From: Pseudomonadota bacterium
GTDB lineage: Bacteria > Desulfobacterota > Desulfobacteria > Desulfobacterales > RPRI01
Direction of reading: 5' to 3'
DNA: 64,000 bases
Assembly (NCBI GenBank): GCA_043825875.1
Contig: JBDRRF010000051.1
Span: forward strand, 96,001-160,000
This document shows, in pieces, positions 42,045-63,949 of this stretch. A model generated the notes under the pieces. That model worked only from the letters and a program-made list of their open reading frames with translations, did no database searches and was not told the origin of the DNA. Positions within the stretch are counted from its first letter, which is position 1. Each line of letters begins with the position of its first letter. The position numbers and the translations under genes were made by a program.

Positions 42045-43427
42045 CTATTTTTTCTGTTCGTATGCTTTTTCTATCATCTGCCCTTTGGCACCAGGACCTG
42101 CTGCTCTTTCCAGTGTATTGGGAGGAATGATAGTGATAGATGTTCTGCATTTTAGTTTAATATGCATTGCATCTTCCAATTCCTTTTTAAGAGCATTTTT
42201 ATCATCTTCCGAACTAATATCCATTCCACATTCCACTTTAATCTTCATTGGAGGTGGTACACCCGGCCCAGGCTGATCTAATACTATTCTCATCTCTCCT
42301 GTTGTTTTCGGCTCTAATGAACTGACAACATTTTTAATAGCCGCAGGATAGACATTTACTCCTTTTATGATAAGCATATCATCGCTTCTGCCGAGAATCT
42401 TGATTCGTGGGAATTTCCATCCGCATTTGCATGTTTCTGTAAACACCTGGAAAATATCTCCCGGAGACCACTTGAAGAAAGGACGTGCCATCCATTGTAG
42501 ATTAGTCATTCGGCTTTCTCCAACCATGCCATCTGTAATATTCCTGATCGGCTCTTTTGTAGACGGATCAACCAAATCTTCCATAATCAAGATGAAATCA
42601 CGAGTCAACAAATGCATTCCCTGATAATCATCCAGATCGCATGAGCCACCTATATAGCCACCAAAAGAATCATAAAGGCGGCAACGATAAGCGTCTTCAA
42701 TCTTTTTCTTTACAGCCGGTATGGCAGCAGCAGGAGCACCGGAACTAATCAGTCTTTTGAGCCCTAATTGACTTACATCTTTTTTTAATATTTTCGGTGT
42801 GGCTTCTATAAGATATTCAATAAGAGGTCCTGTAGCAAGTAATGTCGTAGGCTTAGTTACATCAAGCATTCTAAGAATTTTTTCCGTTCCTGCCTCAGCA
42901 CCTATCGGAATAGGCAAGCATCCATACCATCTTAATGCATGTTCATATATTCTCAGACCTGCCAGGTTCGCAGCGCCTGCAGCATATAATACTCTTTCTC
43001 CGGGACGTAAACCCATTTTCCAGAAATGACGCCCTGCCATATGATGATGTATTTCATAATCTTCTTTTGTAAACAAATAGGGAAAAGTCGGCTCACCGGT
43101 AGTTCCTGTGGTTGAACCCAGATGAATTATTTTGTCTATGGGAGCACAAAGATTTGTTCCAAAAGGATGCCCATATTTTTCAGAAGATGCTGTTTGTGTT
43201 TCTCTATCATCAGTTTTTGCAAAATAAAGATTAAGGTTTCTGAAATCATCCCATGTTTTAATATCTTCGGGTTTTACTCCAATTTCATCGAATTTCTTTT
43301 GGTAAAAATCCGGAGAATTATCATAAATGTATTTTATTTGTTTTTTAAGTTTTGTCATCTGTAGTTGCCGGAGTTCATCTGCAGGCATATCCTCCAATTC
43401 CGCCAACTCTTTATCATAATCAATCAT
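42045..43427 (-). CDS. Phenylacetate-CoA ligase-like aryl-CoA ligase
   Basis: STTGTTGEP P-loop, GRSDDMLIIKGVNVYP. Confidence 0.85.
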   Translation of the reverse strand: MIDYDKELAELEDMPADELRQLQMTKLKKQIKYIYDNSPDFYQKKFDEIGVKPEDIKTWDDFRNLNLYFAKTDDRETQTASSEKYGHPFGTNLCAPIDKIIHLGSTTGTTGEPTFPYLFTKEDYEIHHHMAGRHFWKMGLRPGERVLYAAGAANLAGLRIYEHALRWYGCLPIPIGAEAGTEKILRMLDVTKPTTLLATGPLIEYLIEATPKILKKDVSQLGLKRLISSGAPAAAIPAVKKKIEDAYRCRLYDSFGGYIGGSCDLDDYQGMHLLTRDFILIMEDLVDPSTKEPIRNITDGMVGESRMTNLQWMARPFFKWSPGDIFQVFTETCKCGWKFPRIKILGRSDDMLIIKGVNVYPAAIKNVVSSLEPKTTGEMRIVLDQPGPGVPPPMKIKVECGMDISSEDDKNALKKELEDAMHIKLKCRTSITIIPPNTLERAAGPGAKGQMIEKAYEQKK

Positions 43428-43654
43428 TTCTAAAATCTCCTTGTCTTGTCGATATCAAACCATTTTGACCAAGGCAATTATCATATGTTATTTTTTTACG
43501 CAACCAATTTTTCTTTATTTTACTACAATCTATACAAATAGACTCCCAATCAAGCATATACCCCTGGGATGACCAGAGGTATATGTCTAACATATCGATT
43601 GTATAAATCTAATCCGGACAAACCCGCCGGATTAAAAGATAATTCCATTTTCCA

Positions 43655-44560
43655 CTATTCAAGTTTATAAACTCTCATAGCATTATCCCTTAATACCTTT
43701 TTCTTTATTTCATCTTTTATGGGAAGCTCAAGAAACTCTTTCTTACATCTTGTAAGGCCGAATCCGTTAGTAGCCCACATTACTTTATCCTGCCCTCTTC
43801 CGTTAATAAATTTAATTATATCGGGATGGAGATCGGAAGGATAATATGCCCCAATATTGCCGTAAACATTATTATGCCTCCAGATCATGGATATCCACTC
43901 TGAAATCCATGGGAATCCGGTGTGAGTAAGCACAATAGTAAGATCCGGAAAATCCATGGCGATTTCATCTGCATACATCGGATGTCCGGGCTCACTCGGC
44001 AATGCCTCGGCTGAATGTCCTACCTGAAAAGACACAGGTATTCCCATATCAAGACATTTACTGTACAAAGGATACATTTTTTTATCATCCGGCCTGATTC
44101 CGTAGCTGATAGGATGTGCAAATACAAACTTGCAGCCGTAAGCTTCATAGGCCTGATCTATTTCTTCCAGACTTTCTTTTATTCTGAAAGGGTTCCAGCT
44201 TGCACCACCTATTATCCGGCCTTTTGATTTATCAACAAAATTCTTTATTGTTTCAACAGACCAGTTTACCCAGAATGTATGATCGCGTCTGGACCAGTTC
44301 TTGGCACATTCCATAAAAATGTACTGCACCCCGATCTTGTCCATTTCCTCGACCACACCTTCTACCGAACCGGGGCCCATCATACCGAGCACTTTCCATT
44401 CTTCGCCGGGTTTTAATCCCAATCTTTTAGCCACACCGGCAAAGGTACCCTTTACCATTTGCTTAACTTCACTTATTTCAAACATCGGCTTGGCTATCTC
44501 AGGATCGGCATAAAATGCCCTGCACATGCTGTCTACAGCCATGACGTCTTTTAATTCCAT
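43655..44560 (-). CDS. Amidohydrolase_2 family protein
   Basis: MYPLYSKC, FQVGH, IAMDFPDLTIVLTHTGFPW. Confidence 0.82.
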   Translation of the reverse strand: MELKDVMAVDSMCRAFYADPEIAKPMFEISEVKQMVKGTFAGVAKRLGLKPGEEWKVLGMMGPGSVEGVVEEMDKIGVQYIFMECAKNWSRRDHTFWVNWSVETIKNFVDKSKGRIIGGASWNPFRIKESLEEIDQAYEAYGCKFVFAHPISYGIRPDDKKMYPLYSKCLDMGIPVSFQVGHSAEALPSEPGHPMYADEIAMDFPDLTIVLTHTGFPWISEWISMIWRHNNVYGNIGAYYPSDLHPDIIKFINGRGQDKVMWATNGFGLTRCKKEFLELPIKDEIKKKVLRDNAMRVYKLE

Positions 44561-44610: not shown

Positions 44611-46800
44611 TCAAGCACCAACCTGTACATCCCAAACAGGAGCAGTGCCCGGAGGAAGAGCATCCTGGCATAACAATGTTGTACAGCTTGGGCAATAGAA
44701 CTCATGATAAACAAGAAATCTGTCGGTCTGAAGATAATTTGCTCCGATATCGCAGCCTTTAATCTCGGCTTTTAATGCGTGATCTTTATAATTCTGATCA
44801 TTTCCGCAAAATACATGGCCGCATTTTAGGCACTGGATCTTCTTGTCTTTGGTTATCTGAAGATTTTCATGAATTCTTATGATACCTTCTTCAATCGGAG
44901 CACAGTTCAGCGCAGGAGCTTTACATGTTGATGCAGCACGTTCTCTTCTTTTTGCCTTGAGAAGTTCTCTTTGTTTTTCCGTTGCTTCTATGTTAATGCC
45001 CTCATTTTTGCCTTCAATTACTACACCATATATATCTATTGCATATTCAGGAGTAATTATCAGATTTATAATATCGGCTAAAACTCTTTCAGGTTCACGA
45101 TCCAGAGGATCTCCATACCCGCCTGCTCCTACTCCATACAGATAGTAGATATCACCCTGGAAAGCAGGTGTTGCGGAAACCATGGTAGGCCATTCTTTTT
45201 GATCGCCTCCAGTTGCTTTAATATCTTCAAGGCAGGTAATAGCCTTGCCACTTGCCAGATATGCGTCACTTGTGGTGTTATTGGCAACGTAATTTTTATA
45301 AGGAGCCGGCTGATGGCCTCCCCATAATCCGGGACCACCTGTGGTTTCCTTGTTCCAGCCAAGAATAAGAACCTGAACTCCGGGAGTATTATGAACCTTA
45401 TAAATAACTTCCATACCTGTACCACCGCGGTATTTACCGGCGCCGGCTGAATTTATGGCCTGACGTTTTACAAGATAAATAAAAGGCATGATTGATTCAT
45501 ACATTTCAACATCACCGGCTATAACTTCAGGCGTTACTGGAAAGCAACCCGAATCAACACCGTCAAAACCGGAACCGGCACCCTGACCACCGCTTAAGAT
45601 ATCAAAAAATACTGTCCCCATAACAAGTCCATACTGATTGGGACCGCCCCAGGCTATAACTGCCGAATTAGGCGGTGAACAGGCATTCTGATCGCCATAA
45701 TATTCAGGAACTCCCACCATCATTCTGGAAACCAGAGTATTTAATATAGCGCAAAGCTGTAAAACATGGAAAGCCGACATGCTTACAGGTGCAGGCCAGT
45801 TTGCATTTTCTATACAACCTTCAGGAGCTATAATATCTACAACATCTAAAACTCCTCTGTTCCACTGCTCTACATAAAACAACCGGGTGCATAAAATTGT
45901 GTAAACAACGCCTACTACTGATTCATAAACCATGTTGGTCGGGCCGGGCCTCTGGGGATCTGAACCGGTAAAGTCAACAGTAAGTCTGTCTCCTTTTTTG
46001 GTAAGTGTTGTAACTATTTTGGCCAGATTGTAGTTTTTACCGTCATGATCTATATAGGTTACATCCCGCCAGACACCATCGGGAAGTTCTTTCAGTTTGG
46101 CCTTGGCATATGCTCTTGTATCATTGATCATTTGTACAAATATGGACTGCATGTCTTCTTTGCCATATTTATTAAATAATTTTATTATACGATCCTTGCC
46201 CACATTTAATCCTGCAACACGTGCACGGCAGTCAAGTGTTATTCCTCCCGGATCACGGACGGCTCTTTGAAGAAGCATATATGTGTCTTTGCGCTCAACA
46301 CCTTTATCCATGAGTTTCAAACCCGGAATTCTGATTCCTTCATGAAATATTTCAGTTGCACTCGGACACATTCCGCCGGGCTCTATAGCTCCTACTTCAC
46401 CTGTATGAAACAGTGCTGAAAGCCAGCCTATCATCTCGCCTTGGTAATACACAGGACAAAAACAGGTTTGATCAGGTGCATGAATTCCACCGATGTACGG
46501 GTCGTTAAACATGAAAACATCGCCATCGTTTATGCCGGGATTCTCAGTATACCACTCTATAACTTTTCCAATTTGTTTTTCTACACCGCTTATATGCAGC
46601 AACAAACCGGCTGAACTTACTATGGTTTCTCCGTTTGGTTGATGCAGACTGAAAAGAACCTCTTTGGCCTCAGTTACAACCACCGAGCCGGAAACTTTCT
46701 CCATAGTGGAACGTCCCTCCCACAAGGTCTGCCATATACTGTGCTTGACAACCTCATAGGTAATAGGATCTATTTTAAAATCACAACTATCTGTACTCAT
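44611..46800 (-). CDS. Hydantoinase B / acetone carboxylase alpha-like subunit fused to a gamma-like Zn domain
   Basis: DPITYEV, NDPYIGGIHAPD, HTGEVGAIEPGG, GAGKYRGG, GGYGDPLDR; tail CLKCG...NYK...EFYCPSC. Confidence 0.85.
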   Translation of the reverse strand: MSTDSCDFKIDPITYEVVKHSIWQTLWEGRSTMEKVSGSVVVTEAKEVLFSLHQPNGETIVSSAGLLLHISGVEKQIGKVIEWYTENPGINDGDVFMFNDPYIGGIHAPDQTCFCPVYYQGEMIGWLSALFHTGEVGAIEPGGMCPSATEIFHEGIRIPGLKLMDKGVERKDTYMLLQRAVRDPGGITLDCRARVAGLNVGKDRIIKLFNKYGKEDMQSIFVQMINDTRAYAKAKLKELPDGVWRDVTYIDHDGKNYNLAKIVTTLTKKGDRLTVDFTGSDPQRPGPTNMVYESVVGVVYTILCTRLFYVEQWNRGVLDVVDIIAPEGCIENANWPAPVSMSAFHVLQLCAILNTLVSRMMVGVPEYYGDQNACSPPNSAVIAWGGPNQYGLVMGTVFFDILSGGQGAGSGFDGVDSGCFPVTPEVIAGDVEMYESIMPFIYLVKRQAINSAGAGKYRGGTGMEVIYKVHNTPGVQVLILGWNKETTGGPGLWGGHQPAPYKNYVANNTTSDAYLASGKAITCLEDIKATGGDQKEWPTMVSATPAFQGDIYYLYGVGAGGYGDPLDREPERVLADIINLIITPEYAIDIYGVVIEGKNEGINIEATEKQRELLKAKRRERAASTCKAPALNCAPIEEGIIRIHENLQITKDKKIQCLKCGHVFCGNDQNYKDHALKAEIKGCDIGANYLQTDRFLVYHEFYCPSCTTLLCQDALPPGTAPVWDVQVGA

Positions 46801-46828: not shown

Positions 46829-48934
46829 TTAAAGTTTTACGATAACCACGTTCATGTACGCATCAACCTCCGCCAATTGATCGGGTAGGATAACCATGGT
46901 GGTACTCGGTGTTTCAATAATGGCCGGGCCTTCTATCTTGTTACCATATTTCAGCTTCCTGGAATCAAAGATATTGGTTTCTACATAGTCATTGTATTTT
47001 CTGAAAAAGGCGGGCCTGGTCCCTTTGATAGCCGGTGAAGAATCGGCAATAGGCTCATAATCAGCCTTTTCAAGGGAAGGTTTAAGAAGTTTACTTACAG
47101 CATTCAACCTGAAAGTTACAACCTGCATTCCCGCTTCACGGAACCCGGAACCCTTGCCGTAGATTTGCTCGTATCTGGCTTCCCAATCGTTCATAATCTG
47201 CCGTACATCCTCGGCATTAAGCTTTTTGGTCGGAGCCGGAATATTAACTTCATGTACCTGCCTGTTATATCTTAAATCCAGCTCACGGTGAAGCTCAACA
47301 TCTTCTGCTGCTATGCCTTCAAGAGCCATATCTGCTATCGCATGCTTTTCCATTTCTTCAAAAACAGCATTAAGATGTGTTGGATCTGCAGGCATAATAT
47401 TAACATCGGTCTGGGTGTAAACATGAATTACATCCGAACAGGCAATGCCGAATGCGGAAAATACCGAAGACTGAGGAGGAATTATAACCTTTTTAGCCCC
47501 AAGATCTTTGGAAAAAGATGCACAGTGCATGGGACCGTTACCACCATATGAAAGAAGCACGAAATCTCTCGGATCATGTCCTTTGTCAATTACTGACTGC
47601 CTTAAGTTGTCCGCCATAAATGAATTTATAATATCATATATACCGGCTGCTGCCTGAACCACATCCATGCAAAGAGGATCAGCAATTTTCTCTTTGATCG
47701 CCTTGTACGCTTTATCTTTATTTATGTTAAGCTTGCCGCCGAAGAAATAGCCCGGATTCAGATAACCAAGTACAACATCAACATCGGTTACTGTGGGTTC
47801 TGTGCCTCCACGCTCATAGCAAACAGGGCCTGGGGTTGAACCGGCACTGTCGGGCCCAACTTTAAGGGCACCTGTAACAGGATCGATCCTTGAGATTGTT
47901 CCGCCTGCCGCTCCGATACATGTGATATTGATAATCGGGATGGTTACACGAAAGCGCATCATGATGGGCTCTTTCTTGAAAGACCATTCACCGTCTGCCA
48001 GAACGCTCACGTCAAAACTCGTGCCGCCGACATCTGTTGTGATTATGTTTTTTTCTCCAAGAATGCTACCCAAATACTTGCTTCCTACAACGCCGCCTAC
48101 AGGCCCTGACTCAATGGTGGAAACAGGTCTTGCAGTCTCCCAGCTTGTTACTCCGCCGTAGGCATGCATAATCGAAATATCCTGTTTCAACCCGGAATTC
48201 TTCAGCTCGTGGTTTAAAGAATCAATATATTCACGAGTCAACTTTCCTATACAGGCATCGATAATTACAGTCATCGTACGGGCATATTCTCTGAGTTTGG
48301 GAGATATTTCATGAGATACCGCTAAATAAATATCCGGATAATTCTCCTCTACCAGCTTTTTCAATGCGATTTCATGTTCAGCGTTTGTAAAAGACCATAA
48401 CAGACATATAGCTATAGCCTCACAACCTTCCGCTGCCAGTTCGTCAATGGCCTGTTTTGCCTGCTTCATATCAAGGGGTATGACAGCCTTACCGAAACAG
48501 TCCATACGTTCAACTATACCTTTAATTAATGGACGAGGCACAAGCGGCTCTGGTTTGCGGCATACAGCCTGATGCTTGACTTCTTCTTCACTCAAACCGT
48601 CTGTTTTTGCACCGGCTCTCATAATAATGGAAATATCTTCATGCCCGGCTGTGGTTAAAAGACCTACTTTTCCGAATGTACGGTTTATAACAGCATTGGT
48701 TCCAAGAGTCGTACCATGACCTACATAAACCGTACTAGGCAAGATATCTTCCAGCTTCTTTCCCATCTCAGAAGCCCCGTCCCGCAAAGAACTGATAACA
48801 CCGGCCTTAAGATCCCCATAGTTAGTAAGAGCCTTACCGATAGTTACTTTTCCGTGCTTATCAATGATAACCGTGTCGGTAAAGGTTCCCCCGGTATCTA
48901 TACCAATAATATATTTTTCCTTTTCTTCTGCCAT
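46829..48934 (-). CDS. Hydantoinase A / acetone carboxylase beta-like ATP-binding subunit
   Basis: IDTGGTFTD, HGTT, ESGPVGG, DVGGTSFD, GPDSAGSTPGPVCY. Confidence 0.9.
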   Translation of the reverse strand: MAEEKEKYIIGIDTGGTFTDTVIIDKHGKVTIGKALTNYGDLKAGVISSLRDGASEMGKKLEDILPSTVYVGHGTTLGTNAVINRTFGKVGLLTTAGHEDISIIMRAGAKTDGLSEEEVKHQAVCRKPEPLVPRPLIKGIVERMDCFGKAVIPLDMKQAKQAIDELAAEGCEAIAICLLWSFTNAEHEIALKKLVEENYPDIYLAVSHEISPKLREYARTMTVIIDACIGKLTREYIDSLNHELKNSGLKQDISIMHAYGGVTSWETARPVSTIESGPVGGVVGSKYLGSILGEKNIITTDVGGTSFDVSVLADGEWSFKKEPIMMRFRVTIPIINITCIGAAGGTISRIDPVTGALKVGPDSAGSTPGPVCYERGGTEPTVTDVDVVLGYLNPGYFFGGKLNINKDKAYKAIKEKIADPLCMDVVQAAAGIYDIINSFMADNLRQSVIDKGHDPRDFVLLSYGGNGPMHCASFSKDLGAKKVIIPPQSSVFSAFGIACSDVIHVYTQTDVNIMPADPTHLNAVFEEMEKHAIADMALEGIAAEDVELHRELDLRYNRQVHEVNIPAPTKKLNAEDVRQIMNDWEARYEQIYGKGSGFREAGMQVVTFRLNAVSKLLKPSLEKADYEPIADSSPAIKGTRPAFFRKYNDYVETNIFDSRKLKYGNKIEGPAIIETPSTTMVILPDQLAEVDAYMNVVIVKL

Positions 48935-48948
48935 ATTATTCTCCCCTT

Positions 48949-50217
48949 TTAATTTGATCTTTGTCCTACTCTATCAGATAATATCTCAATAAATTCCTTT
49001 AATTTTACCTGCATCTCTTCTACAGTAACAAAAGTCGGGTCCATTATATCGCAATCTACTACCAGTGTTGGAATTCCCGCTTGTTCGCTTAAAGCGTCTT
49101 TTAAAGATCTTATAATTCCTGACTGACGGCAGGCATTCTGAGCCCAGAACACTGCCCCATCAATCTTATAGTCCTTAACCACCTTAATGGAATCGTTTAT
49201 AAAGTCTTTGGAAGAACCCATTATACATCTGGTCATAGGTGCATTGAAATATCTCTTTGCCAATGCTTCCAATGGGTCCGAAGGATCCAACTCATCTTTT
49301 CCCCATTGAAAAACAATGCTTTCATTAACAAAAAGAGCTCCATAATCCTTTGCCAGCCAGTCCTGAAGCTTAAACGAAAACTGCGGAGGCATAAAAAGGT
49401 CCAGCAGCCTTAGTTTTTCATTGGGAATCGCCCCAATACCTTTTTCGACCCTGGCTTTAACTTCATCTCTTACAATCGTAAACCATTTTACACCTTCCGG
49501 AGTCCCGGCGTTAATCCAATACATCCAGTAAGACTGCCATGCCCTTCGGCTCTCCATCGGAGAAGGGATAGCTTTTCGCAACTCAGCTATCTCTATATAA
49601 AGGCGCGTCATTTCAGCAGTCATTGCCATATTTTCTTTCAGGCGATCCCAGTCCATCTTCCGGCCGGTTACCTTTTCTACAAATTCAATAAGCCGTCCGA
49701 ATTCATTTGCCAGGTATTTAACCCCTCTTTCCGAATTTTCCCATGGGACATCAATGAAAAAGTCAGGAAGACCATACATATCTGCTGAGACCCCTCCGCT
49801 TGAGGCAAAAGCATCGCAACCAGCTCCCATGTGGACGATCAGTTTCGGTTTTGGAAACCAGTTTTCAACAAAATGCCCCAGCTGTATTCTGTGAGCCGAA
49901 CATGTTTCTAAAGGAACTCCATATCCACGGCTTGTGTCCATGGCCTCTTTGTAATTGCGGGTACATACAGTCATTGCACCACTTGACGAAACTATAAGGA
50001 CAGGAACCATGTCCATTGCATGAAAAATTTCAGGCGGAACAAAAGTGCTGTGGGCGGCAATTTCTTTCCCTGACCTCATTGCCTCAGTAACTTTTTGAAA
50101 ATATGAAGTATATAGCTCATAATAAGCTTTTTCCCCGCTTGATTTTACTTTAGGCAAAACATGGTCTGTAATATCTTCTAAATTTTTAACCGCCTTAAAC
50201 CATAAATCGTGGTTCAT
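48949..50217 (-). CDS. Class I aryl-CoA reductase / 2-hydroxyacyl-CoA dehydratase subunit (BcrB/BzdO-like)
   Basis: PPEIFHAMD, ETCS, GCD, ACR, VDCDIMD. Confidence 0.8.
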   Translation of the reverse strand: MNHDLWFKAVKNLEDITDHVLPKVKSSGEKAYYELYTSYFQKVTEAMRSGKEIAAHSTFVPPEIFHAMDMVPVLIVSSSGAMTVCTRNYKEAMDTSRGYGVPLETCSAHRIQLGHFVENWFPKPKLIVHMGAGCDAFASSGGVSADMYGLPDFFIDVPWENSERGVKYLANEFGRLIEFVEKVTGRKMDWDRLKENMAMTAEMTRLYIEIAELRKAIPSPMESRRAWQSYWMYWINAGTPEGVKWFTIVRDEVKARVEKGIGAIPNEKLRLLDLFMPPQFSFKLQDWLAKDYGALFVNESIVFQWGKDELDPSDPLEALAKRYFNAPMTRCIMGSSKDFINDSIKVVKDYKIDGAVFWAQNACRQSGIIRSLKDALSEQAGIPTLVVDCDIMDPTFVTVEEMQVKLKEFIEILSDRVGQRSN

Positions 50218-50221
50218 AGCA

Positions 50222-51379: not shown

Positions 51380-51549
51380 AAACTGTTCCTTTCTCTTATA
51401 CTAAGGGGATAAACAGATTAAATTATTAATCATTACCCCCGACATATGTCAAGATAAACGATTTTTTCAAAATTAATTAAAAGAACATCTGCATAAAGGC
51501 TTTAGATAAATCTTTATGCAAATCTCTCCTATCTATAAATCTCTATAAA

Positions 51550-55107: not shown

Positions 55108-55121
55108 TTAAGAATATTCCT

Positions 55122-56123
55122 CTATGCTTCTCTGACTTCAGGATAGTAACACATAGCAGTCCTGCAAGGTAGTCTATAAACATATTTGTAAAATGCCCGC
55201 GTCTGTTCTATGTACTGCTTCCTTGAAATAGTTTTATCTTGTAAAAGTGTAAGCAACATCCTTATAAACTTAACATCATTTATTTTGCGTTTTAAATCAT
55301 TACCCCGTCCGACTATTTTTACGCAATCAACCCCCATTTCAACAAAATCATAAAGGGCGCACGCTCCACAAGGAACATCATCCATATGAAGCCTGGTCCA
55401 TACCTGCTGTCTTTTAAAAGCAATCTCAGCCTTATTACTATGAGCAATTGCTGATTTTGATTTTCTATTAGCCGGCTTGTCCGAATATAAACTTAAGCTA
55501 TAAGGAAGCATGCAGGAATTTTTGAATGAACTTTCCAATGACTGAACATGATCAAAAGTACAAAGGCCATCCACATTTGGACAACGGGAATTAAATATGA
55601 AAACACACGTTTCTACGCCGGTTACATTTTTTACTATATCTCTGATTTCGTCGATGGTCAGATGTCTTTCAAAAATTACTTTATCAATCCCCAATTTCTG
55701 CAAAAACTTAACAGTCTCAGAGTTAAAAATGGAAATTCCGGTGCTCACATTAATCGATGTTTCAAGACCGGCATCTTTTATAGCAAGGATAAGATTCAGA
55801 TCTGCAACTATAAATGAATCAACACCAGCATCAATAGCTTTTTTAATATAATCAAGCAGCATTGGATATTGATCCTGGGTATAAAAATGTTCATTTATAG
55901 CAAGGTTCACCAATGCATTATATGAATGAGCAATAGAAACGGCTTCTTCTAAAGCATTGAAAGACTGAAGATTGCATATGGTTGCAGGCCGCCTGTTAAT
56001 TGCTGCTATAGTATATCTGCTCAGCCATTTATCCCATATAACACCGCAATAAAGCTCGTTAGCCCCTGCTTTTATGACATCTTCTACATCATCCACTTTA
56101 TCTATAGGCGCCAGGATATTCAT
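55122..56123 (-). CDS. Peptidase U32 family (UbiU/TrhP/RlhA-like Fe-S protein)
   Basis: ILAP...AGANELYCG, ERHLT, CPNVDGLC, CGAC, VKIVGR. Confidence 0.8.
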   Translation of the reverse strand: MNILAPIDKVDDVEDVIKAGANELYCGVIWDKWLSRYTIAAINRRPATICNLQSFNALEEAVSIAHSYNALVNLAINEHFYTQDQYPMLLDYIKKAIDAGVDSFIVADLNLILAIKDAGLETSINVSTGISIFNSETVKFLQKLGIDKVIFERHLTIDEIRDIVKNVTGVETCVFIFNSRCPNVDGLCTFDHVQSLESSFKNSCMLPYSLSLYSDKPANRKSKSAIAHSNKAEIAFKRQQVWTRLHMDDVPCGACALYDFVEMGVDCVKIVGRGNDLKRKINDVKFIRMLLTLLQDKTISRKQYIEQTRAFYKYVYRLPCRTAMCYYPEVREA

Positions 56124-57115
56124 TCAGAACTTTCCCCTTGTTTCAAATAAGACAAAAAGGTTTCCAATAGCACCTCTGCCTGCTGGCTTGGATTTTTATT
56201 ATCTATTGAAACTTCTTTTATTCCTTGCTCAAACTCTTTCGAATCGCTAGTAAATTTATCAAGATGACGCATAATTTTGTCTTCCATAATTTTACAGATC
56301 TCGATCCGTATTCTTTTTTCTCTTCTTTGCTTAAGCTGACCGTTTTCTATCGAATAGTCTCTATACAACTCAAGCTCTTTCCAAAGCTCTTCTATCCCTT
56401 TTTGTTGTACAGCTATTGTTTTAACCAGGACAGGCTCTCGTTCTCCATTCTTAGTGGCCCAATGCAGAGCGGTTTTAAGAGAGGACGCTAACATATCGGC
56501 TCCTGCCTGATCTGCTTTATTGAGTACAACGATATCTCCGATTTCCATTGTTCCGGCTTTCATTGCCTGGATTTCATCTCCCATTCCAGGACTTAGAACT
56601 ACTACAACCGAATCAGCCAGTTTTGTAACTTCTATTTCAGCCTGCCCGGCACCGACAGTCTCAACAAATATATAATCTTTCCCAAATGCATCAAGGACAT
56701 TGGCCACCCGATAGGTGGCCTCCGACAGTCCTCCCATTTCGCCTCTGGAACCAAGGCTTCGTATAAAGACATTTTGCTTTGTGCCTAAATCTTCCATCAT
56801 CCTTATACGATCGCCCAAAAGTGCTCCTCCGGTAAATGGGGAAGAAGGATCAATAGCTATAATAGCTACTTTTTTCCCACTTTGGTCTAATAATCTTGCC
56901 AGTTTTCCCACTACAGTGCTTTTACCTGCTCCGGGTGCTCCGGTAAAACCAATAACGTAGGCCTTTCCGCTATGAGGATAAACTTGCTTCATGATCTCCG
57001 GAACTGAAGAATCATTTGCTTCAACTAATGTTATCAGTCTGGCTGTTGCTCTTACAGAGCCATTCAACATATCTCTTACCAGATCAGCGCTACTTTGTTT
57101 GGTTTTCAACGACAT
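56120..57115 (-). CDS. meaB: MeaB/ArgK GTPase chaperone of B12 mutases
   Basis: GAPGAGKST, DPSSPFTGGALLGDRIRM, ETVGAGQ, NKAD. Confidence 0.93.
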   Translation of the reverse strand: MSLKTKQSSADLVRDMLNGSVRATARLITLVEANDSSVPEIMKQVYPHSGKAYVIGFTGAPGAGKSTVVGKLARLLDQSGKKVAIIAIDPSSPFTGGALLGDRIRMMEDLGTKQNVFIRSLGSRGEMGGLSEATYRVANVLDAFGKDYIFVETVGAGQAEIEVTKLADSVVVVLSPGMGDEIQAMKAGTMEIGDIVVLNKADQAGADMLASSLKTALHWATKNGEREPVLVKTIAVQQKGIEELWKELELYRDYSIENGQLKQRREKRIRIEICKIMEDKIMRHLDKFTSDSKEFEQGIKEVSIDNKNPSQQAEVLLETFLSYLKQGESSE

Positions 57116-57152
57116 CCCCCTTAAAAAGTATAAGCATAAATAATATCAAGAT

Positions 57153-57545
57153 TTAAGCATTTACACATTCAACCACATCCTGCAATGTCCCTACTCCAGG
57201 CATAAAAACCTCATCAACTCCTATTTTAAGAAGTTCTCTCTTTTCCGGTTCGCTGATTGTACCACCTATAACTACCTTTATATCACCTTTTAAGCCCTGT
57301 TCACTCATCAGTTCCATCAAACGAGTAGTGTCATATACAAGACCGGCACTGTAAAAACTCATGGCAATCACATCCACATCTTCTTCAACAGCAGTTTTAA
57401 CAACCTCATCTATTATGCTATATCGGGTAAAAATAACTTCCATACCTTTATCTCTCAACAACTGGGTCAGGTATCTAACACTTACCTCATGAGCATCCTG
57501 ATCGCTTTTGGTTACAAGAATCCTTTTTTTCATTTTAGTTTCCAT
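57153..57545 (-). CDS. Cobalamin-binding small subunit of an acyl-CoA mutase
   Basis: DAHEVS (DxHxxG variant), EEDVDVIAMS, GGTI, EVFMPG. Confidence 0.88.
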   Translation of the reverse strand: METKMKKRILVTKSDQDAHEVSVRYLTQLLRDKGMEVIFTRYSIIDEVVKTAVEEDVDVIAMSFYSAGLVYDTTRLMELMSEQGLKGDIKVVIGGTISEPEKRELLKIGVDEVFMPGVGTLQDVVECVNA

Positions 57546-57557
57546 GACTACCCCTTT

Positions 57558-59276
57558 TCATCCTGAGAAATAACCATATCCCAAATTTTCCTGCATTACC
57601 TTGGACATCTCTCCAGCTGTGGCCCCAGCTCTTGCAGCCTCAACCAAAGCCGGCATAAGTACGCCACCGGAACTTGGCCATTCTTTATCTACTTTAATTG
57701 CCGCTATCTTCACATTTTCCAAAGCAGCTTTTACTTTTTCGTTATCCCTGTTTGCTTTATATTTCTTGATTCGCTCAATGGCTTTCTCTTCGATTTCAAT
57801 GGGGCGTCTATATATATTCGGTTCAGGATTAGCTTCTTCAACACGGTATTTGTTTACACCAACCTTAACCAGTTCTCCTGACTGGATTTTATCAAAACGC
57901 TTGGCAGCCGCTTCTTGTACCTGCCCTCTTATCCAGCCGGACTCCCAGCATTTGAGATATCCGCCCATTTGATCCATCTGATCCATAATTTTAAGAATTT
58001 CCTGCTCCATTTGATTGGTCAGCCATTCAACGTAATATGAGCCTCCTAATGGATCTGTAACATGGGGAAGATCGGTCTCTTCCTGCAGGATCTGATATGT
58101 ACGGACACAAACCTTAACCGCTTCTTCTGTCGGAATACTTATAGCTTCATCATATGAAACTACCCACATTCCCTCAATATCAGCCATCATACCTGCCATA
58201 GTCATTACAGTAACTCGGATAATATTATTATATATTTCCTGGGCTGTAAGCTCGTTTCCAGCGGTCTGGGCTATAATTATTTTATGCCTGAGCGCATCCG
58301 GGTTGGTAACTCCAAATCTTTGAGCAAATATCTTGGCCCACAATCTCCTGGTAGCCCGCAACTTTGCCACTTCTTCAAAAAAGTTTTGACTAACGTGAGG
58401 ATGCCCCAAATACTTGGCAACCACGTCATTAGGATCAAGACCTACTTTTTGGCACTCCTCTACCGCAGCAATAGTGTGAGCCATGGCAAAAGCAACTTCC
58501 ATAGCAGGCGTTGCTCCTGATTCACCTAAATTGTAGCCATCAAAGGCACCAGGACAAGCAAGCGGCATATTATCTGCGTGCCACTTGATCAACTCGGTTG
58601 ACATCTTTAAGGCTGTCTTTGGTGGGTACCCGGCTGCATCCCAGAACTGCTGATGGTGAAACAGGTTGCAGGGCAGATTCCACATATCGGCAAGGTTTTC
58701 TTTTCGCCGGTCAAGAATATAAGCTGCAAACAGAGCGTTTATCGGAAGAGCGTTATCAATAGCAAGTAACGCTGTAAAAAGTTTTGTAATATCCAGACCA
58801 TCAAAATATTCAGCAAAGTCATCAATTGTGCTGAAAGAACATCCACACTCTCCAACCTTGCCTTTGGCTGCCGGATGATCAGGGTCCAATCCTCTCTGAG
58901 TTGGAAGATCTAATGTCATTACAGCTGTAACAAGCCCGCCCTGGGAACGACTTCCAAGACTCTGAAGAAACTCACGGCGCTCCCTGGTCTCCTCTGTGGT
59001 AGCAAACCCATATCCCTGATTCATAAGCATGGGTTCTACCTGATAATGAAAGGGATAATTACCGCGGGTAAAGGGGAAGTTCCCTGGTATTCCAACATCC
59101 TGAAAGTCAAGATCCTTTATATCATCCGGACCATAGCTTGGTTTCAGGGTTATGCCCGATAAGTTGGTAGCAGGAGGCGGAGGGGGTGGAATTGCTTCAG
59201 CAGGCATTGCCTTCATAGCAGCCATCAACTGTTCGTCCAAAAGTTGCTTTTTTTTCAAAGTATCATCAGTAAACAT
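57558..59276 (-). CDS. B12-dependent acyl-CoA mutase large subunit, atypical specificity
   Basis: PGNFPFTRG, DLPTQRGLD, FFEEVAKLRA, DEAISIPTE, DPLGGSYYVEWLT, VGVNKY. Confidence 0.9.
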   Translation of the reverse strand: MFTDDTLKKKQLLDEQLMAAMKAMPAEAIPPPPPPATNLSGITLKPSYGPDDIKDLDFQDVGIPGNFPFTRGNYPFHYQVEPMLMNQGYGFATTEETRERREFLQSLGSRSQGGLVTAVMTLDLPTQRGLDPDHPAAKGKVGECGCSFSTIDDFAEYFDGLDITKLFTALLAIDNALPINALFAAYILDRRKENLADMWNLPCNLFHHQQFWDAAGYPPKTALKMSTELIKWHADNMPLACPGAFDGYNLGESGATPAMEVAFAMAHTIAAVEECQKVGLDPNDVVAKYLGHPHVSQNFFEEVAKLRATRRLWAKIFAQRFGVTNPDALRHKIIIAQTAGNELTAQEIYNNIIRVTVMTMAGMMADIEGMWVVSYDEAISIPTEEAVKVCVRTYQILQEETDLPHVTDPLGGSYYVEWLTNQMEQEILKIMDQMDQMGGYLKCWESGWIRGQVQEAAAKRFDKIQSGELVKVGVNKYRVEEANPEPNIYRRPIEIEEKAIERIKKYKANRDNEKVKAALENVKIAAIKVDKEWPSSGGVLMPALVEAARAGATAGEMSKVMQENLGYGYFSG

Positions 59277-59449
59277 ATCTTAACCTCTCTTTTCACAAGG
59301 CTTAACCCCATGGATTAAATCTTTTCGATAAGAATTATCTCACGGGTATTTCAGTAACCATCTAAATTAATTAAGAGATAGAAGCACTTTTATGTAAAGA
59401 AGGAAGAGAACACTTTTATGGTTCCTCCTTATACATATATAAAAGGAAC

Positions 59450-59498
59450 AAGGGTTCCTGCGAAACGGTACAATCGGCTTCTTGTCACAGGAACCCTT
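59450..59498 (-). terminator. Hairpin, probable intrinsic terminator
   Basis: aagggttcctg...caggaaccctt between the oxidoreductase trio and the mutase. Confidence 0.55.
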
Positions 59499-59591
59499 TT
59501 TAAATCCGGCAACAAAACTTTATCCGGAACTTACGGTTTCAATACTACATTATATGAATTCTATCTCTGAATAATATTCAAACTCAAATAA

Positions 59592-61169
59592 TTATTCAGG
59601 CTCGCAGTATCCATGAGGATCTGAAGCAGTATTCGGATCAAAAACCCTCTTTATCTTTTTCATATACTTATGGAAACCATGAGCATGCGGGCTTGTCATA
59701 GTATGCGCCATTTCACCTGCATTTTCAAAGAACCCCAGCCCTACTCCTTCTGTAATAGCTGCGCCAACACTATCAAAGCCTAATTTAATAGCAGCTTTGG
59801 TTGACTCAATGTCAAAAGGATCATACTGATAAAGCGGTTCATGATGTGATCCGATAGTAGCTTGTTCATACAGGTTGGAACCCCACACATTGTGAACTTC
59901 CTGCAGGAACTGACCACCGTCTACATAAGGCTTCATTAATTTATCACCAAGGTAACTTCCAAAACAGGCATTGTCGATTGTATCATCACCTGTTGCAGCA
60001 CAGAAGAACGAACCTGTTCCGCGGAAAATACCTTTGATAATTTCTCCGCCCCACAGATGCCACCAATAATTGGAGCCAGCAGCATGAGGTACTTTTTCCA
60101 GATCTTCATCTATCCAGCCGCCTGTTTTTTCCAGAATCGCTTTCAAGCATTTTTCCTGGTATGCTATTTCTCCGTCACTGTGACCACCAAGTATTATTCC
60201 AAAAGCAAAGGCATTTTTCTGTAAAATACCTTTCTGCCACAGTTCATAGAATTCCTGGTTGGATTCCGTCATCATAGCGCCATGCCATGCTGCAACAGCC
60301 CTGTCGCCGGAATATGTCATTTCGGCTTCGGTAATCATATACTGGGCTTCATGCATATCATCCCATGATTTCCATGCGCAAATATATGAACTCATTCTCT
60401 CTGGAATGATAGGATCATAGCATGGAGATCTTCCGGTACTCTCGTGTTTGTCAGGACCGGGCCATGGATAAAGTTTAATCGAAATCTTGGTGAATGTTCC
60501 AAGAGCACCGAAGGAACCCATATAGCCTCTCATGATACCTCTGATGCCGGGGCCGGGGCCATCTGCGCTGAACCATTCGCCGCTTTGTCCCAATGATCCT
60601 AATTTTAACAATTCACCGGTAGACAATACCCATTCCACGCCTAAAATATTACGTGAGCTGTGGCTTGTGTTGATAGAACTTGGTCCCATACCGCAGCATG
60701 CTGCATGACTGGCAAGACTTGATGTTGTTGGTCCGGGTCCTATTACATGCGGGCGAAGTCCCTTTTTAATACACTCAACATGGAGCTGCCCAACTGCAAC
60801 GTAAGGCTCAATAACTGCAATCATGTTCTTTTCATCAATATCTATGATACGATTCATTCTTCTCATATCAAGAGCTATTGTGTCAGGACTTCCTGCTAAA
60901 GATCCCGGAAACCAGCCGGTACTAAAAGCATGAGATTTTATCCCATATTTATTGCATACCCTTTGAATAGCCTGGACCTCTTCGGTACATCCGGGAAGCA
61001 ACGCCGCTACCGGCCATTCAGGCATAAAGTATTCTTCAGCCGGAGTTTGCATATATGGCTGCACCATAAACACGTATGCATATCCAGCCAAATTAGCCGG
61101 CTCTTCTGATATGTTTTCCGGGCCTACTATATCTTCGAGTGCCCTGTAAGCTTCTCTTGTTAAAGCCAT
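59592..61169 (-). CDS. FAD-binding oxidoreductase (VAO/PCMH/GlcD family)
   Basis: LPGCTEEVQAI, LDMRRMNRIIDID, EWVLSTGELL, KIKRVFDPN. Confidence 0.82.
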   Translation of the reverse strand: MALTREAYRALEDIVGPENISEEPANLAGYAYVFMVQPYMQTPAEEYFMPEWPVAALLPGCTEEVQAIQRVCNKYGIKSHAFSTGWFPGSLAGSPDTIALDMRRMNRIIDIDEKNMIAVIEPYVAVGQLHVECIKKGLRPHVIGPGPTTSSLASHAACCGMGPSSINTSHSSRNILGVEWVLSTGELLKLGSLGQSGEWFSADGPGPGIRGIMRGYMGSFGALGTFTKISIKLYPWPGPDKHESTGRSPCYDPIIPERMSSYICAWKSWDDMHEAQYMITEAEMTYSGDRAVAAWHGAMMTESNQEFYELWQKGILQKNAFAFGIILGGHSDGEIAYQEKCLKAILEKTGGWIDEDLEKVPHAAGSNYWWHLWGGEIIKGIFRGTGSFFCAATGDDTIDNACFGSYLGDKLMKPYVDGGQFLQEVHNVWGSNLYEQATIGSHHEPLYQYDPFDIESTKAAIKLGFDSVGAAITEGVGLGFFENAGEMAHTMTSPHAHGFHKYMKKIKRVFDPNTASDPHGYCEPE

Positions 61170-61186
61170 CTCAAACCTCCTTATTA

Positions 61187-62470
61187 TTAAATTGCCTGCT
61201 CGACAAGCTCTATAATATCCAATATCTTGAGTGCATCACCCGAATCGTTGACAGCGTCAGAGAAATTACGTTCGCACCAGCCACATGCAGTTACCATTGC
61301 TTCTGCACCTGTTGTTTTTGCCTCGGTAACTCTCTCTTTGGCAACCCAGAGTGAATAGTCAGGATCAGAATCCATACATCCTCCGCCAGCACCGCAACAG
61401 AAACTGTATTCTTCAATTCTTTTCATCTCTGTAAGTTTTACACCCGGAATGCTTCTAAGAATTTCTCTTGGAGCATCATAAATACCATATTTTCCTCTAC
61501 GGAATACTTTCGGGGGATCATGCAAACAAAGCTGGCCCATTACCTTCTTTTCTACACCTTTCCAGGGTATCCAGTCTTCACCCAGTCTGCCAAGGTGGCA
61601 TGGGTCATGGTAGGTAACTCTCAAAGGAACATTCTTGGAGAATTTGAGCTTGCCTTCCTTGATAAGCTGAGCTATATATTCAGTAATATGAAGGACTTCA
61701 ATATCAAGCTTTTTACCTATTTTGTGATAAAGAACTTTAAAAGCATGGTAACAATCGGAACAGGAAACCACTATTTTCTTTACTCCTGCCGTCTTGAACA
61801 TACCCGCATTATTTTCGGAGAAACTCTCTATCTCGCCCTGATATCCCATTTCATAGGAACGGCCTCCGCAACATGCTTCTTCCATACCTAAGATACCTAC
61901 ATCAACACCGGCTTTTTGCAATACGGAAATAGCGGTTCTTGCAACCTTATGCAGACTTTCATCAAACGAAATCCTGCAACCGGCAAAGTAAAGGACCTCT
62001 GCTTTTTCCTTGGTAAGATCTTTTATCTTAAGGCCTTTAGCCCAATTGCCTCTGTCGGCCTTTTTGGCCTGCATCATGTTGTCTTCTGCTTTCAAACCTT
62101 CCATCACGGCCATCAGCTCCGGAACGAGCTGACCATCTTCAACACATTGAGCCCTTAATGCAAGCAACATTTCCTGAGGCTCCATATCACGGTTGGTTTT
62201 GCATGTTATATCACAGGCACCACACATCTGGCAGTGGTATATTATATCCAACCATCCATCTGTATATTCGATTTTATCTGTTACATATGCAAGTGCACTA
62301 TGATACCTTCCGGCGCCGGAATAAGCATGAAAGTTATGTTTTGAAATTGAGGGGCACACCTGAGCAAACTCTTGACCTGGACCTTTCTGCCAGGGAACCC
62401 ACTTACAATTGGAACACCTTTCACAGCGAACCATATCAGCTTTCCAATCTATTAATGCCATTTTTAACAC
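61187..62470 (-). CDS. Fe-S oxidoreductase with CCG domains (GlcF/GlpC/HdrD-like)
   Basis: CERCSNC, CQMCGACDITC, CCGG, YHDPCHLGR, CCGAGGG. Confidence 0.85.
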   Translation of the reverse strand: MLKMALIDWKADMVRCERCSNCKWVPWQKGPGQEFAQVCPSISKHNFHAYSGAGRYHSALAYVTDKIEYTDGWLDIIYHCQMCGACDITCKTNRDMEPQEMLLALRAQCVEDGQLVPELMAVMEGLKAEDNMMQAKKADRGNWAKGLKIKDLTKEKAEVLYFAGCRISFDESLHKVARTAISVLQKAGVDVGILGMEEACCGGRSYEMGYQGEIESFSENNAGMFKTAGVKKIVVSCSDCYHAFKVLYHKIGKKLDIEVLHITEYIAQLIKEGKLKFSKNVPLRVTYHDPCHLGRLGEDWIPWKGVEKKVMGQLCLHDPPKVFRRGKYGIYDAPREILRSIPGVKLTEMKRIEEYSFCCGAGGGCMDSDPDYSLWVAKERVTEAKTTGAEAMVTACGWCERNFSDAVNDSGDALKILDIIELVEQAI

Positions 62471-62485
62471 CTCCTTAAAAGCCTT

Positions 62486-63949
62486 CTAGAAACACAGTTT
62501 ACCAGGGTTCATAATTTTATTGGGGTCAAATATTGTTTTTACTTTTCTCAGGAAAGAGGCAGTTTCGCCATCTCTTCTGTAAACCATGTCTGACCAGGAG
62601 CCATATGGTCTGGAAAAGAATGCTCCCATATTAGCCAAAGCCATGCTATCATTAACAAGCCCCTTAACCTTATCCATCTCCGCCTTATTATTGCTGTCAC
62701 AATTTAAGTTGAATTCCACATGACAGCTGGTACCATTAACTGTCGGTTGTATATAAACACCTATATCATTCGGAGAAAAACCCTTGCTTTCAGCCTGAGC
62801 AGCCATAGCTTTTACAAAGTCAGGTGTATGGTCTAATGTAGTCAGGAAGAATATATCCCGACAGGATCCTTTGGCTTTATTTTTCCAATAAATCTCACCG
62901 GAAGGTTTAGCCAATGCGGCAGCTACATCATCAGCCGACAATCCACATGGAAGTGCTTCCAATGGGGTAAGACCATTTGCCTGTGCGGCATTTTTAATGT
63001 CTGTTACCTGGTAAGCCACTTTATCCTCAGGCATTACACCCCGACCCTCTGCACTGATAAAAAGAACATAGGGCGGTAACGCATCTTTTAGAGCTGCCAC
63101 TTCACTGCTGTCTTTAGCCATTATACAAGCAAGATTGTGGTTGTTTAAAATAAGGATGTCATCGCCAAGAAGTACCTTATGCATTTTATAAACAAGCCCT
63201 ATAAGGTCTTCTACTTTCTGGGCCGGAACAAAAAATGACTTCTTAAGTACAGGTTTTACTCTGCATTTTATTGATAACCAAGTCACAATACCCATAGTTC
63301 CCTGTGAGCCTTGTACAACTCTCTGAAAATCTGTCTGAGCAGGTCCCATAGGTCTTATCTGTGCCCTTTTGTTTTCCCACTGCTGAGCCAGAGTACCCGG
63401 TCCTGCAGCCGAACCTGTCATAAACAGATGGCCATCGCCGAAAATAACTTCCATACAAAGCAGCGGATCTTGCGGATCCCAGTGATGCCTAGGCATTGTA
63501 ATGGGTTCTCTTTCAAGATAACTGCCGACAACAGATTTCGTGCTGCGTGGAACAAGCGGCATATGAGCAGCCAAGCCTTCTTTATCAAGGGCTTCAATAA
63601 GCTCACCAAATGTTACGCCAGGTTCAACCATTGCAACACGGTTTCTTCGGTCAACTCTTATGATCTTTTTCATTCCGCTAAGATCAACAACAACTGCCCC
63701 ACCAGTACTGGGAACTGTATCACCCCTGTAGTGAGGTGCGCCAGAACTCACCGGAACAAGCGGTGTACCTGTTTCATTAGCCCACTTAATCAATTCCTGC
63801 ACCTCAGTATTTGTACTGGGCTTTACTACGCAAGAAGGTCGTACCGGGATAACAAAACTCTCATCCCCGGAATAGGCATCCAGGGTTTTCTGATCATCAA
63901 AAACATTGTTTTTGCCAATGATCTTCGTTAATTCATCTTTTTGAGCCAT
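62486..63949 (-). CDS. FAD-binding oxidoreductase (VAO/PCMH/GlcD family)
   Basis: VVKPS, LVPVSSG, VEPGVT, GSQGTMGIVT, FDPNKIMNPGKL. Confidence 0.85.
   Translation of the reverse strand: MAQKDELTKIIGKNNVFDDQKTLDAYSGDESFVIPVRPSCVVKPSTNTEVQELIKWANETGTPLVPVSSGAPHYRGDTVPSTGGAVVVDLSGMKKIIRVDRRNRVAMVEPGVTFGELIEALDKEGLAAHMPLVPRSTKSVVGSYLEREPITMPRHHWDPQDPLLCMEVIFGDGHLFMTGSAAGPGTLAQQWENKRAQIRPMGPAQTDFQRVVQGSQGTMGIVTWLSIKCRVKPVLKKSFFVPAQKVEDLIGLVYKMHKVLLGDDILILNNHNLACIMAKDSSEVAALKDALPPYVLFISAEGRGVMPEDKVAYQVTDIKNAAQANGLTPLEALPCGLSADDVAAALAKPSGEIYWKNKAKGSCRDIFFLTTLDHTPDFVKAMAAQAESKGFSPNDIGVYIQPTVNGTSCHVEFNLNCDSNNKAEMDKVKGLVNDSMALANMGAFFSRPYGSWSDMVYRRDGETASFLRKVKTIFDPNKIMNPGKLCF

Follow-up and report, generated by a model that had tools for sequence, protein, structure and literature searches.

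A candidate catabolic gene island of a Desulfobacterales bacterium, with a possible ketone carboxylation route for alkyl-substituted aromatic compounds

A run of 17 co-oriented genes in a member of the Desulfobacterales (lineage RPRI01; GenBank assembly GCA_043825875.1) raises the question of what a probable anaerobe might do with a flavoprotein dehydrogenase, a B12-dependent mutase, a pair of U32 proteins, a benzoyl-CoA reductase-like enzyme, a hydantoinase-like ATP-dependent enzyme and a CoA ligase encoded side by side. The genes lie in a 64,000-nucleotide stretch of contig JBDRRF010000051.1 (positions 96,001 to 160,000), hereafter the window, and an annotation from sequence alone (the original prediction) had taken them for an undescribed pathway of anaerobic aromatic or heteroaromatic degradation. 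Our analysis indicates that the block is very probably an undescribed catabolic island: its logic is that of known anaerobic side-chain routes, and its combination of modules and four of its enzymes are new. The original prediction stands in that the combination is undescribed, no catalytic gene matches an equivalog and gene order is kept within the genus; its analogy to indoleacetate degradation and its ring-reduction step have lost ground. Full-text searches, of main texts that include few subscription papers, gave no description of the combination.

The reading that we favour, tentatively and at a little short of an even chance, is that the block serves the oxygen-free breakdown of an aromatic or heteroaromatic compound with an alkyl substituent, through a ketone carboxylation route. 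We infer that this route would run in six steps: oxidation of a benzylic or secondary carbon to a ketone by a FAD/CCG/FAD dehydrogenase with electron-transfer flavoprotein (ETF); ATP-driven conversion of the ketone to a beta-keto acid by a hydantoinase-like alpha/beta-gamma enzyme; formation of the CoA ester of an alpha-branched acid by the ligase; a shift of the thioester by the B12 mutase and its chaperone MeaB, acting on a bulky substrate without a free carboxylate; release of aroyl-CoA by a thiolase complex, which lies in the cluster in one relative and elsewhere in the source genome; and reduction of the aroyl-CoA, or reductive removal of a substituent, by a four-subunit enzyme of the class I reductase type. 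A predicted heterodimer of U32 proteins would add an O2-independent hydroxylation, probably at low flux, and two further products, a geranylgeranyl-reductase-family flavoprotein and an amidohydrolase, are given no place in the scheme.

Layout and recurrence of the block

All 17 open reading frames (42045-63949) are intact on the minus strand, without internal stops and in the order first described, and the earlier guess that the cluster runs past the window end proved right: etfB (G000:C51:160016-160810) and etfA (G000:C51:160792-161883) lie just beyond it and bring the block to 19 genes. This etfB-etfA pair sits 66 bp upstream of fad1 and is followed by an 830-bp gap and then a divergent ubiD-ubiA-mqn operon. 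Thirteen of the 16 gene junctions measure at most 54 bp, three of them being overlaps, and the remaining ones measure 170, 227 and 315 bp. Pfam or NCBIfam backs the earlier labels for 16 of the 17 genes; the exception is the 273-aa U32 partner, which matched no family and whose label was later borne out by its likeness to U32 proteins. The GTPase chaperone MeaB (56120..57115, minus strand, 331 aa; TIGR00750) is the sole product to pass an NCBIfam equivalog cut-off, all catalytic genes scoring below theirs. The source genome (G000) comprises 4.77 Mb at 39% GC and is 99.8% complete.

The longest gap, a 315-bp intergenic region (59277..59591, minus strand) before the mutase gene, contains an inverted repeat that is conserved, together with the sequence downstream of it, in 4/4 genomes; it is possibly a terminator, a processing site or a regulatory leader. 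Searches of the block in four sources for a cobalamin riboswitch or other Rfam RNA gave no match. One RNA run (X14) yielded three matches of 32-36 bases to the block, which are evidence neither way on expression.

Gene order is conserved in 4 of the 17 genomes of the genus (G000, G008, G011 and G016), the three relatives sharing it at 77-99% amino-acid identity over 15 genes on G008:C34, 16 on G011:C73 and 13 on G016:C29, with the 3' genes of the block on other contigs. A 19.9-kb DNA query matched four of the 16 other genomes of the genus, these three over many kilobases and G013 over just 254 bases. In the three relatives the mutase shows 87-99% identity, and it was not found at E 1e-100 in any of 14 genomes of other families in the order. 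In addition, a single contig of 22,478 nt from the groundwater run of another study spans 48,895-63,971 of the window, and every one of the 30 bins is represented by fragments in a second groundwater run and in one seawater run. The recurrence of this order in relatives and in the groundwater contig is more than chance, and the block is an accessory island that belongs to a single clade.

Co-conservation of the whole set of modules is seen within this one genus only, which weakens the original prediction; elsewhere the modules occur apart, and several of the resulting counts weigh against a single pathway. Outside the genus no locus examined joins more than a few modules. At E 1e-115 the mutase matched in 10 of 400 other genomes of the phylum, with at least 50% identity only in G056 and G036, and none of the eight mutase neighbourhoods inspected outside the genus resembles this block. 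Among the loci fetched, several on short contigs that limit counts of co-occurrence, the FAD trio (25 of 250 phylum genomes) is complete in 16/16 and adjoined by ETF in 8/16, with the mutase, carboxylase, U32 or reductase genes beside it in none; the U32 partner (28 of 300 genomes) has an adjacent UbiU-like gene at 9 of 18 loci, six loci following lipB-lipA and three lying in operons resembling those for quinohemoprotein amine dehydrogenase (qhp), and a mutase or carboxylase gene at 0/18; and the geranylgeranyl-reductase (GGR)-family gene (18 of 300 genomes) is accompanied at 12 loci by neither U32 nor mutase nor carboxylase genes. Relatives of the mutase, carboxylase, reductase and GGR protein occur in G036 and G056 on separate contigs, and the U32 pair was not found with our query in G056 (99% complete) or G036 (84%). 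Within the genus, a close orthologue of the hydantoinase-like pair (hyuAB) was not found in G016 (best match 34%; genome 87% complete). Partial links between modules do recur and speak for the favoured reading: two other clusters, on G056:C59 and G016:C165 (L147, L256), hold hyuAB plus gamma together with subunits of the Had/Bcr type and a ligase of the PaaK type. A plasmid search with the mutase or beta subunit gave nothing above 38% identity among the matches listed, and a metagenome scan with the mutase alignment gave at least 80 loci at 32-40% identity, generic mutases, of which one locus (L034) was inspected.

These distributions bear on the possibility, which we consider unlikely, that the block is a mosaic island of independent catabolic modules for several different substrates. 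Every module is found by itself in other places, the source genome has a second hyuAB beside a biotin carboxylase gene and a second amidohydrolase gene at another site, the thiolase pair is not always part of the cluster, and the conserved hairpin lies in the gap before the mutase gene. A mosaic fits poorly with module borders that are tight or overlapping (meaB/U32 -4, GGR/actB 4 and hadB/hyuA 14 bp) and with an order kept in four genomes down to 77% identity. Two pairs of mutase and HyuB homologues (49-58% identity) also have longest contigs of identical length (21,472 and 16,624 nt), and the members of each pair may lie on one contig.

Another alternative is a biosynthetic or cofactor-modifying cluster for quinone or lipid tailoring. 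The GGR-family gene, the divergent menaquinone operon upstream and a lipid kinase gene downstream fit it, as does the description of characterised U32 enzymes as biosynthetic hydroxylases (PMC10990095, PMC11574389). It is nevertheless very improbable: the block contains no ACP, PKS or prenyltransferase gene, CoA-ester catabolism is a good match for ETF, carboxylase, ligase, mutase and thiolase, and the menaquinone ubiD occurs in 15 of 16 relatives in the genus, with other upstream neighbours in the cluster-less G002 and G009 (the two in which that side is visible). A functional tie to the menaquinone operon was rejected on this distribution and these neighbours as adjacency only. Naphthalene activation and alkane or toluene activation were likewise rejected as a theme of the host: the single UbiD of G000 belongs to the menaquinone operon, and its two glycyl-radical enzymes have, by eye, no fumarate-addition cluster as neighbours.

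Downstream of the block, the stretch 37248-41327 separates the cluster from a thiolase operon. It holds a lipid kinase gene of low GC content and also, judged by eye, a nucleotidyltransferase/HepT-like pair, a cation-transporter-like gene and two genes resembling YeeE/YedE. On the other side, the menaquinone operon is followed directly by an integrase gene, integron-like by eye (G000:C51:167788-168771; L001:12788-13771), close to where the contig ends.

The dehydrogenase and the hydantoinase-like enzyme

In the direction of transcription, etfA and etfB are followed by fad1 (62486..63949, minus strand; 487 aa, PF01565 and PF02913), ccg (61187..62470, minus strand; a 427-aa Fe-S protein with 4Fe-4S dicluster and CCG domains, PF13183 and PF02754) and fad2 (59592..61169, minus strand; 525 aa), the two flavoproteins belonging to the VAO/PCMH family of FAD oxidoreductases by Pfam and, for fad2, PDB matches. 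The three genes stood together in 16/16 homologous loci examined. The safe inference for this trio is that it oxidises a benzylic position or a secondary alcohol and hands the electrons to ETF. The best PDB matches of fad2 include 7pbg, an alkylphenol-oxidising flavoprotein, and p-cresol methylhydroxylase 9h40 (E ~1e-17). Its HH motif is kept, and the Tyr-Arg site of 7pbg, aligned in a weak second stretch, is occupied by Phe-Glu. Such a Tyr-Arg pair near the C-terminus presumably binds phenolate in 4-alkylphenol oxidases; its absence means that a para-phenol substrate is not established, and a phenol is only one option. The FAD-CCG-FAD trio is widespread in the phylum as a stand-alone module (L277-L292), in many cases accompanied by ETF and a GGR-family gene, and no characterised member was found among its loci there.

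The second step would fall to the products of hyuA (46829..48934, minus strand), between the BzdO/HadB-type and beta-gamma genes, and of the gene for a 729-aa beta subunit fused to an acetone-carboxylase gamma domain (44611..46800, minus strand). A published classification divides the family into Hyd enzymes (alpha-beta), including the Iaa lactamases, Acx enzymes (alpha-beta-gamma, with gene order alpha, beta, gamma as criterion) and Apc enzymes (with alpha-prime) (PMC5214803), and a gate residue is Glu in Acx and Asp in lactamases and Apc (PMC8453981). The block has the Acx-type order, with gamma fused to beta here and encoded by a separate downstream gene in G056 paralogues; it has one alpha gene, no alpha-prime subunit and no apcABCD(E) order. 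The beta-gamma protein has Glu47 at the gate (Glu in 44 of 57 aligned homologues), a metal site of His107, Asp110 and His132, and zinc-finger cysteines 657, 660, 703 and 706, features that differ from those of Hyd-type lactamases, which are alpha-beta only, without gamma and with Asp at the gate. Among PDB entries ApcC and Acx rank first for alpha, and beta scores 234 bits with ApcD, 190 with Acx and 157 with CapB. In a 22-row tree the protein falls on the Acx side in a clade of its own (100/99), which a 99/98 split sets apart from two uncharacterised plasmid proteins that are alpha-beta only, and a forced grouping with those two was rejected (p-AU 7e-5). The Acx-type reference in that tree is presumably a protein from Cupriavidus, whose motif matches the PDB enzyme. 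Relatives at 49-66% identity have a short-chain dehydrogenase gene within three genes upstream at three of the four closest G056 loci, and the G036 relative follows genes for a CoA ligase and a beta-keto-acid cleavage enzyme (BKACE); these neighbours favour ketone substrates. A ketone carboxylase appears about twice as likely as a lactamase, working, to judge from these features, like Acx without being a member of that branch.

Several points weigh against this assignment. Residues do not separate the branches, and distant assignments need caution (PMC5214803). The NCBIfam score of alpha is higher for caprolactamase (582 bits) than for ApcC (477 bits); the beta part spans about 620-630 aa, that of Acx about 720 aa, and the protein does not fall inside the Acx branch; and the tested tree group was picked after the tree had been seen, with one long-branch Acx reference and uncharacterised Hyd references.

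The same evidence bears on the original analogy to anaerobic indoleacetate (iaa) degradation in Aromatoleum and Azoarcus, restated as a route for an N- or O-heteroaromatic compound: a lactam or lactone would be formed by the flavoproteins or the U32 pair and its ring opened by the ATP-dependent enzyme, with ligase, mutase and reductase acting afterwards. The iaa cluster reportedly holds a PaaK-type ligase and a B12 mutase. Several points favour such a route: both have a hydantoinase-family enzyme, with IaaCE put forward as the one that opens 2-oxoindoleacetate in Aromatoleum (PMC8453981), alpha of the block has caprolactamase as its best NCBIfam match, an Amidohydrolase_2 gene is adjacent to the pair, and some G056 paralogues lie beside molybdenum enzymes and UbiD proteins. 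IaaCE is, however, of the alpha-beta Hyd type, which lacks gamma (PMC5214803), and IaaE has 564 aa (PMC8453981) versus 729 here; the Glu gate and the tree position disagree as well, no molybdenum hydroxylase is among the 19 genes, and the mutase lacks the carboxylate ligands that an arylsuccinyl-CoA would need. An Iaa-like route is therefore rather unlikely, and the analogy is weakened by the Acx-type alpha/beta-gamma layout, set apart from the alpha-beta-only Hyd proteins, as well as by the mutase and the missing hydroxylase.

The favoured ketone carboxylation route has its nearest counterparts in the ethylbenzene/acetophenone and p-ethylphenol routes of Aromatoleum and in Acx, with which the block would share oxidation to a ketone, ATP-dependent carboxylation, CoA ligation and thiolysis, and with which it does share an enzyme family with a zinc-finger gamma. 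The ethylbenzene/acetophenone route uses Apc and Bal, and the p-ethylphenol route reportedly uses a PCMH-type flavoprotein and Xcc. The block differs in having neither alpha-prime nor epsilon, in the fusion of gamma to beta and in the distance of the similarity; it also begins with FAD/CCG/FAD and ETF and adds the mutase, the U32 pair and its own reductase.

A second hyuAB (G000:C75:16386-22165; L014), 94-97% identical, lies behind a lone biotin carboxylase gene, with second copies also in G008 and G011 and a short remnant in G013. The 2.8-Mb genome G056 has 11 beta-subunit matches (contigs C7, C15, C18, C24, C40, C55, C59 and C98), many UbiD, molybdenum-enzyme and phytoene-dehydrogenase-like genes as their neighbours, and two mutases of the subfamily discussed below; it looks like an aromatic-ketone specialist. 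The amidohydrolase of the block (43655..44560, minus strand; 301 aa) has no characterised close relative, and a second one in G000 (84%) lies beside dihydroorotate-dehydrogenase-like genes.

Ligase, mutase, thiolase link and reductase-type enzyme

The PaaK-family ligase (42045..43427, minus strand; 460 aa) and the large subunit of the B12 acyl-CoA mutase (57558..59276, minus strand; 572 aa) have as best PDB matches 2-hydroxyisobutyryl-CoA synthetase and 2-hydroxyisobutyryl-CoA mutase, from the 2-hydroxyisobutyrate module (Hcl, HcmAB and MeaH), whose operon reportedly keeps ligase, split mutase and MeaB-type chaperone together. With its TIM-barrel residues, a 130-aa B12-binding small subunit (57153..57545, minus strand) carrying DxHxxS with the DxH signature, and MeaB, the block has the features of the B12 acyl-CoA mutase superfamily; the large subunit (model pTM 0.85) belongs to an uncharacterised subfamily whose named relatives come from metagenome assemblies. 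Compared with the canonical enzyme of G000 it keeps Tyr243, Glu247, Gln330 and Glu370, and at the sites of Arg87, Tyr89, Arg207 and His244 it has Asn, Gly, a gap (Trp by HMMER) and Asn; the last three are Gly88, the gap or Trp212, and Asn249 in its own numbering. Sites and roles follow methylmalonyl-CoA mutase, in which Tyr89 and Arg207 are the carboxylate ligands and His244 is a further marker residue. Of the 40 close homologues compared, Gly stands at 89 in 34, Asn at 244 in 36 and Arg at 207 in one (six of 119 other matches, of 500 aa or less, were excluded). HcmA has Ile where the block enzyme has Gly, and this Gly, with the lack of a His244 equivalent, predicts a larger substrate. Because both nearest solved relatives come from 2-hydroxyisobutyrate metabolism and the carboxylate ligands are missing, the substrate would be a bulky, alpha-branched acyl-CoA without a free carboxylate, on a pocket geometry taken from alignments.

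The block in the window has no thiolase gene. In G016 a PhlA/HMGS-like protein and a thiolase are encoded between the amidohydrolase and ligase genes, and the corresponding G000 pair (87% and 92% identical) is on contig C109. The PhlA-like orthologue is 86% identical in G008 and 84% in G011; the cluster-less G013 has only a 32% paralogue, and at E 1e-30 there is none in G056 or G036. This link to a thiolase fits a beta-ketoacyl-CoA intermediate. Such an intermediate is open to direct thiolysis, which leaves no evident reason for a mutase and counts against the favoured route. G000:C109:45264-51303 and C23:22551-24814 encode two near-alike divergent mutases, in which Leu occupies the Tyr89 site and His that of Tyr243, and one of them adjoins the PhlA-like/thiolase pair.

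For the last step the block encodes the architecture of a class I aryl-CoA reductase, namely two unlike activator ATPases and N- and O-type subunits, as in BzdNOPQ and MbdONPQ; the subunits and three Cys ligands are also shared with HadBC. ActA (51550..52338, minus strand; 262 aa) groups with BzdQ-like rows (93/91, not starred), and actB (52329..53144, minus strand; 271 aa) encodes degenerate P/D-type motifs, with P-type motifs and an unresolved tree position. The BzdN/HadC-type subunit (50222..51379, minus strand; 385 aa) has three Cys and the BzdO/HadB-type catalytic subunit (48949..50247, minus strand; 432 aa) keeps Cys116, Cys144 and Cys373. In BZD-type benzoyl-CoA reductase, Glu65 and His131 of BzdO are the acid/base residues, and six Cys of BzdN hold a double cubane (PMC11971306). 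The block lacks this residue set: Val86 and Phe147 replace Glu65 and His131, the N-type subunit has three Cys rather than six and is therefore predicted to carry a single cubane, and scores lie below equivalog level. In an alignment of the best 40 of 82 O-subunit homologues, Glu is kept in 22 and replaced by Val in 11. Since MbdO also has Phe at the His site, loss of Glu alone separates the O subunit from both reductases; a separate Bzd-type enzyme of G000 (C111) keeps both Glu and His. A 2-hydroxyacyl-CoA dehydratase has a single homodimeric activator and a catalytic Glu, so the two activator genes and Val86 depart from the Had type as well. With two unlike activators and neither Glu65 nor His131, the enzyme probably acts in the manner of a class I reductase but differs in its substrate or in the outcome of the reaction, and the ring reduction proposed earlier is less well founded than it had seemed. 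The available text on the phenanthrene route mentions neither a hydantoinase nor a mutase (PMC13365417).

Elsewhere in G000 (G000:C110:55671-66460 and C92:566-4689), a further four-subunit reductase-type cluster also seemingly lacks the catalytic Glu in alignment; it adjoins, by eye, a dihydroorotate-dehydrogenase-like gene and two Tat-signal proteins, and two more dihydroorotate-dehydrogenase-like genes follow the second amidohydrolase gene.

The U32 pair and the meaning of the block

Between meaB and the activator genes lie a UbiU-like U32 gene (55122..56123, minus strand; 333 aa), its UbiV-like, Pfam-orphan partner (54286..55107, minus strand; 273 aa) and the GGR-family flavoprotein gene (53149..54231, minus strand; 360 aa). 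The larger protein has an invariant CX6CX15C (Cys181, 188, 204) and its next Cys 47 and 50 residues on (Cys252, 255), not three as in the typical U32 cluster motif CX6CX15CX3C (PMC11574389); it matched no PDB sequence and scores 71 against a UbiU cut-off of 440. The smaller one, with four conserved Cys (36, 198, 217, 221), has 973 representatives at E 1e-10 and a weak profile similarity to its neighbour (probability 55%). Structure models predict that the two form a heterodimer: the complex score is 0.93 versus 0.00 for the best of three controls, separate runs share 92% or more of their contacts, the partner has a pLDDT of at least 90, and the mark applied to the score is reached by 116 of 157 solved pairs and 2 of 215 mismatched pairs. 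The pair resembles the prephenate-dependent hydroxylase UbiU/UbiV, likewise an adjacent Cys-rich U32 pair, in a block that has no UbiT-like gene and a CoA-ester catabolic context. Prephenate is the oxygen donor of UbiUV, and most U32 subfamilies are uncharacterised (PMC10990095). A low-flux hydroxylation is likelier here than bulk ring activation because one prephenate per substrate would be costly for an anaerobe. It is doubtful that the heterodimer hydroxylates the growth substrate itself, with this step joined in a single pathway to a new branch of ketone carboxylases, an aryl-pocket mutase and a Glu-less class I reductase that removes a substituent.

A fixed module of U32 pair and GGR flavoprotein was considered and rejected, as the nearest relatives of the two occur together in genomes of family f76 but at different loci. 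The most similar U32 pairs (40-50% identity; L183, L186, L187, L189, L191 and L193) stand directly after lipB-lipA in families f76 and f58, in genomes that often have a second orphan UbiV-like gene, twice, by eye, near a DAHP-synthase-like gene. More distant pairs (28-32%) lie within quinohemoprotein amine dehydrogenase operons (L195:5942-17375, G235:C3; L194; L197), between the alpha/radical SAM/beta genes and ABC/subtilase genes, the call being Pfam-checked for L195 and made by eye for L194 and L197. No flavoprotein open reading frame was seen in the listed stretch of L195, and the literature found on qhp operons does not mention U32. In anaerobes this pair could replace QhpG, which is O2-dependent (PMC7876137).

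Anaerobic routes for many alkylated and heterocyclic aromatic compounds in aquifers and sediments are unknown, and the block offers a compact gene set that can be tested. At least four of its enzymes fall outside characterised subfamilies: a gamma-fused clade of putative ATP-dependent carboxylases, whose named relatives come from metagenome assemblies; an open-pocket B12 mutase of interest for carbon-skeleton biocatalysis; a Birch-type reductase that lacks the proton donors typical of its kind; and a predicted U32 heterodimer with no tie to the making of quinones or RNA, which together with its qhp-linked cousins is a good target for study. If the U32 pair did hydroxylate the growth substrate, it would be the first U32 hydroxylase in anaerobic catabolism, and the route coupled to it would be a new O2-free means of activating an aromatic ring.

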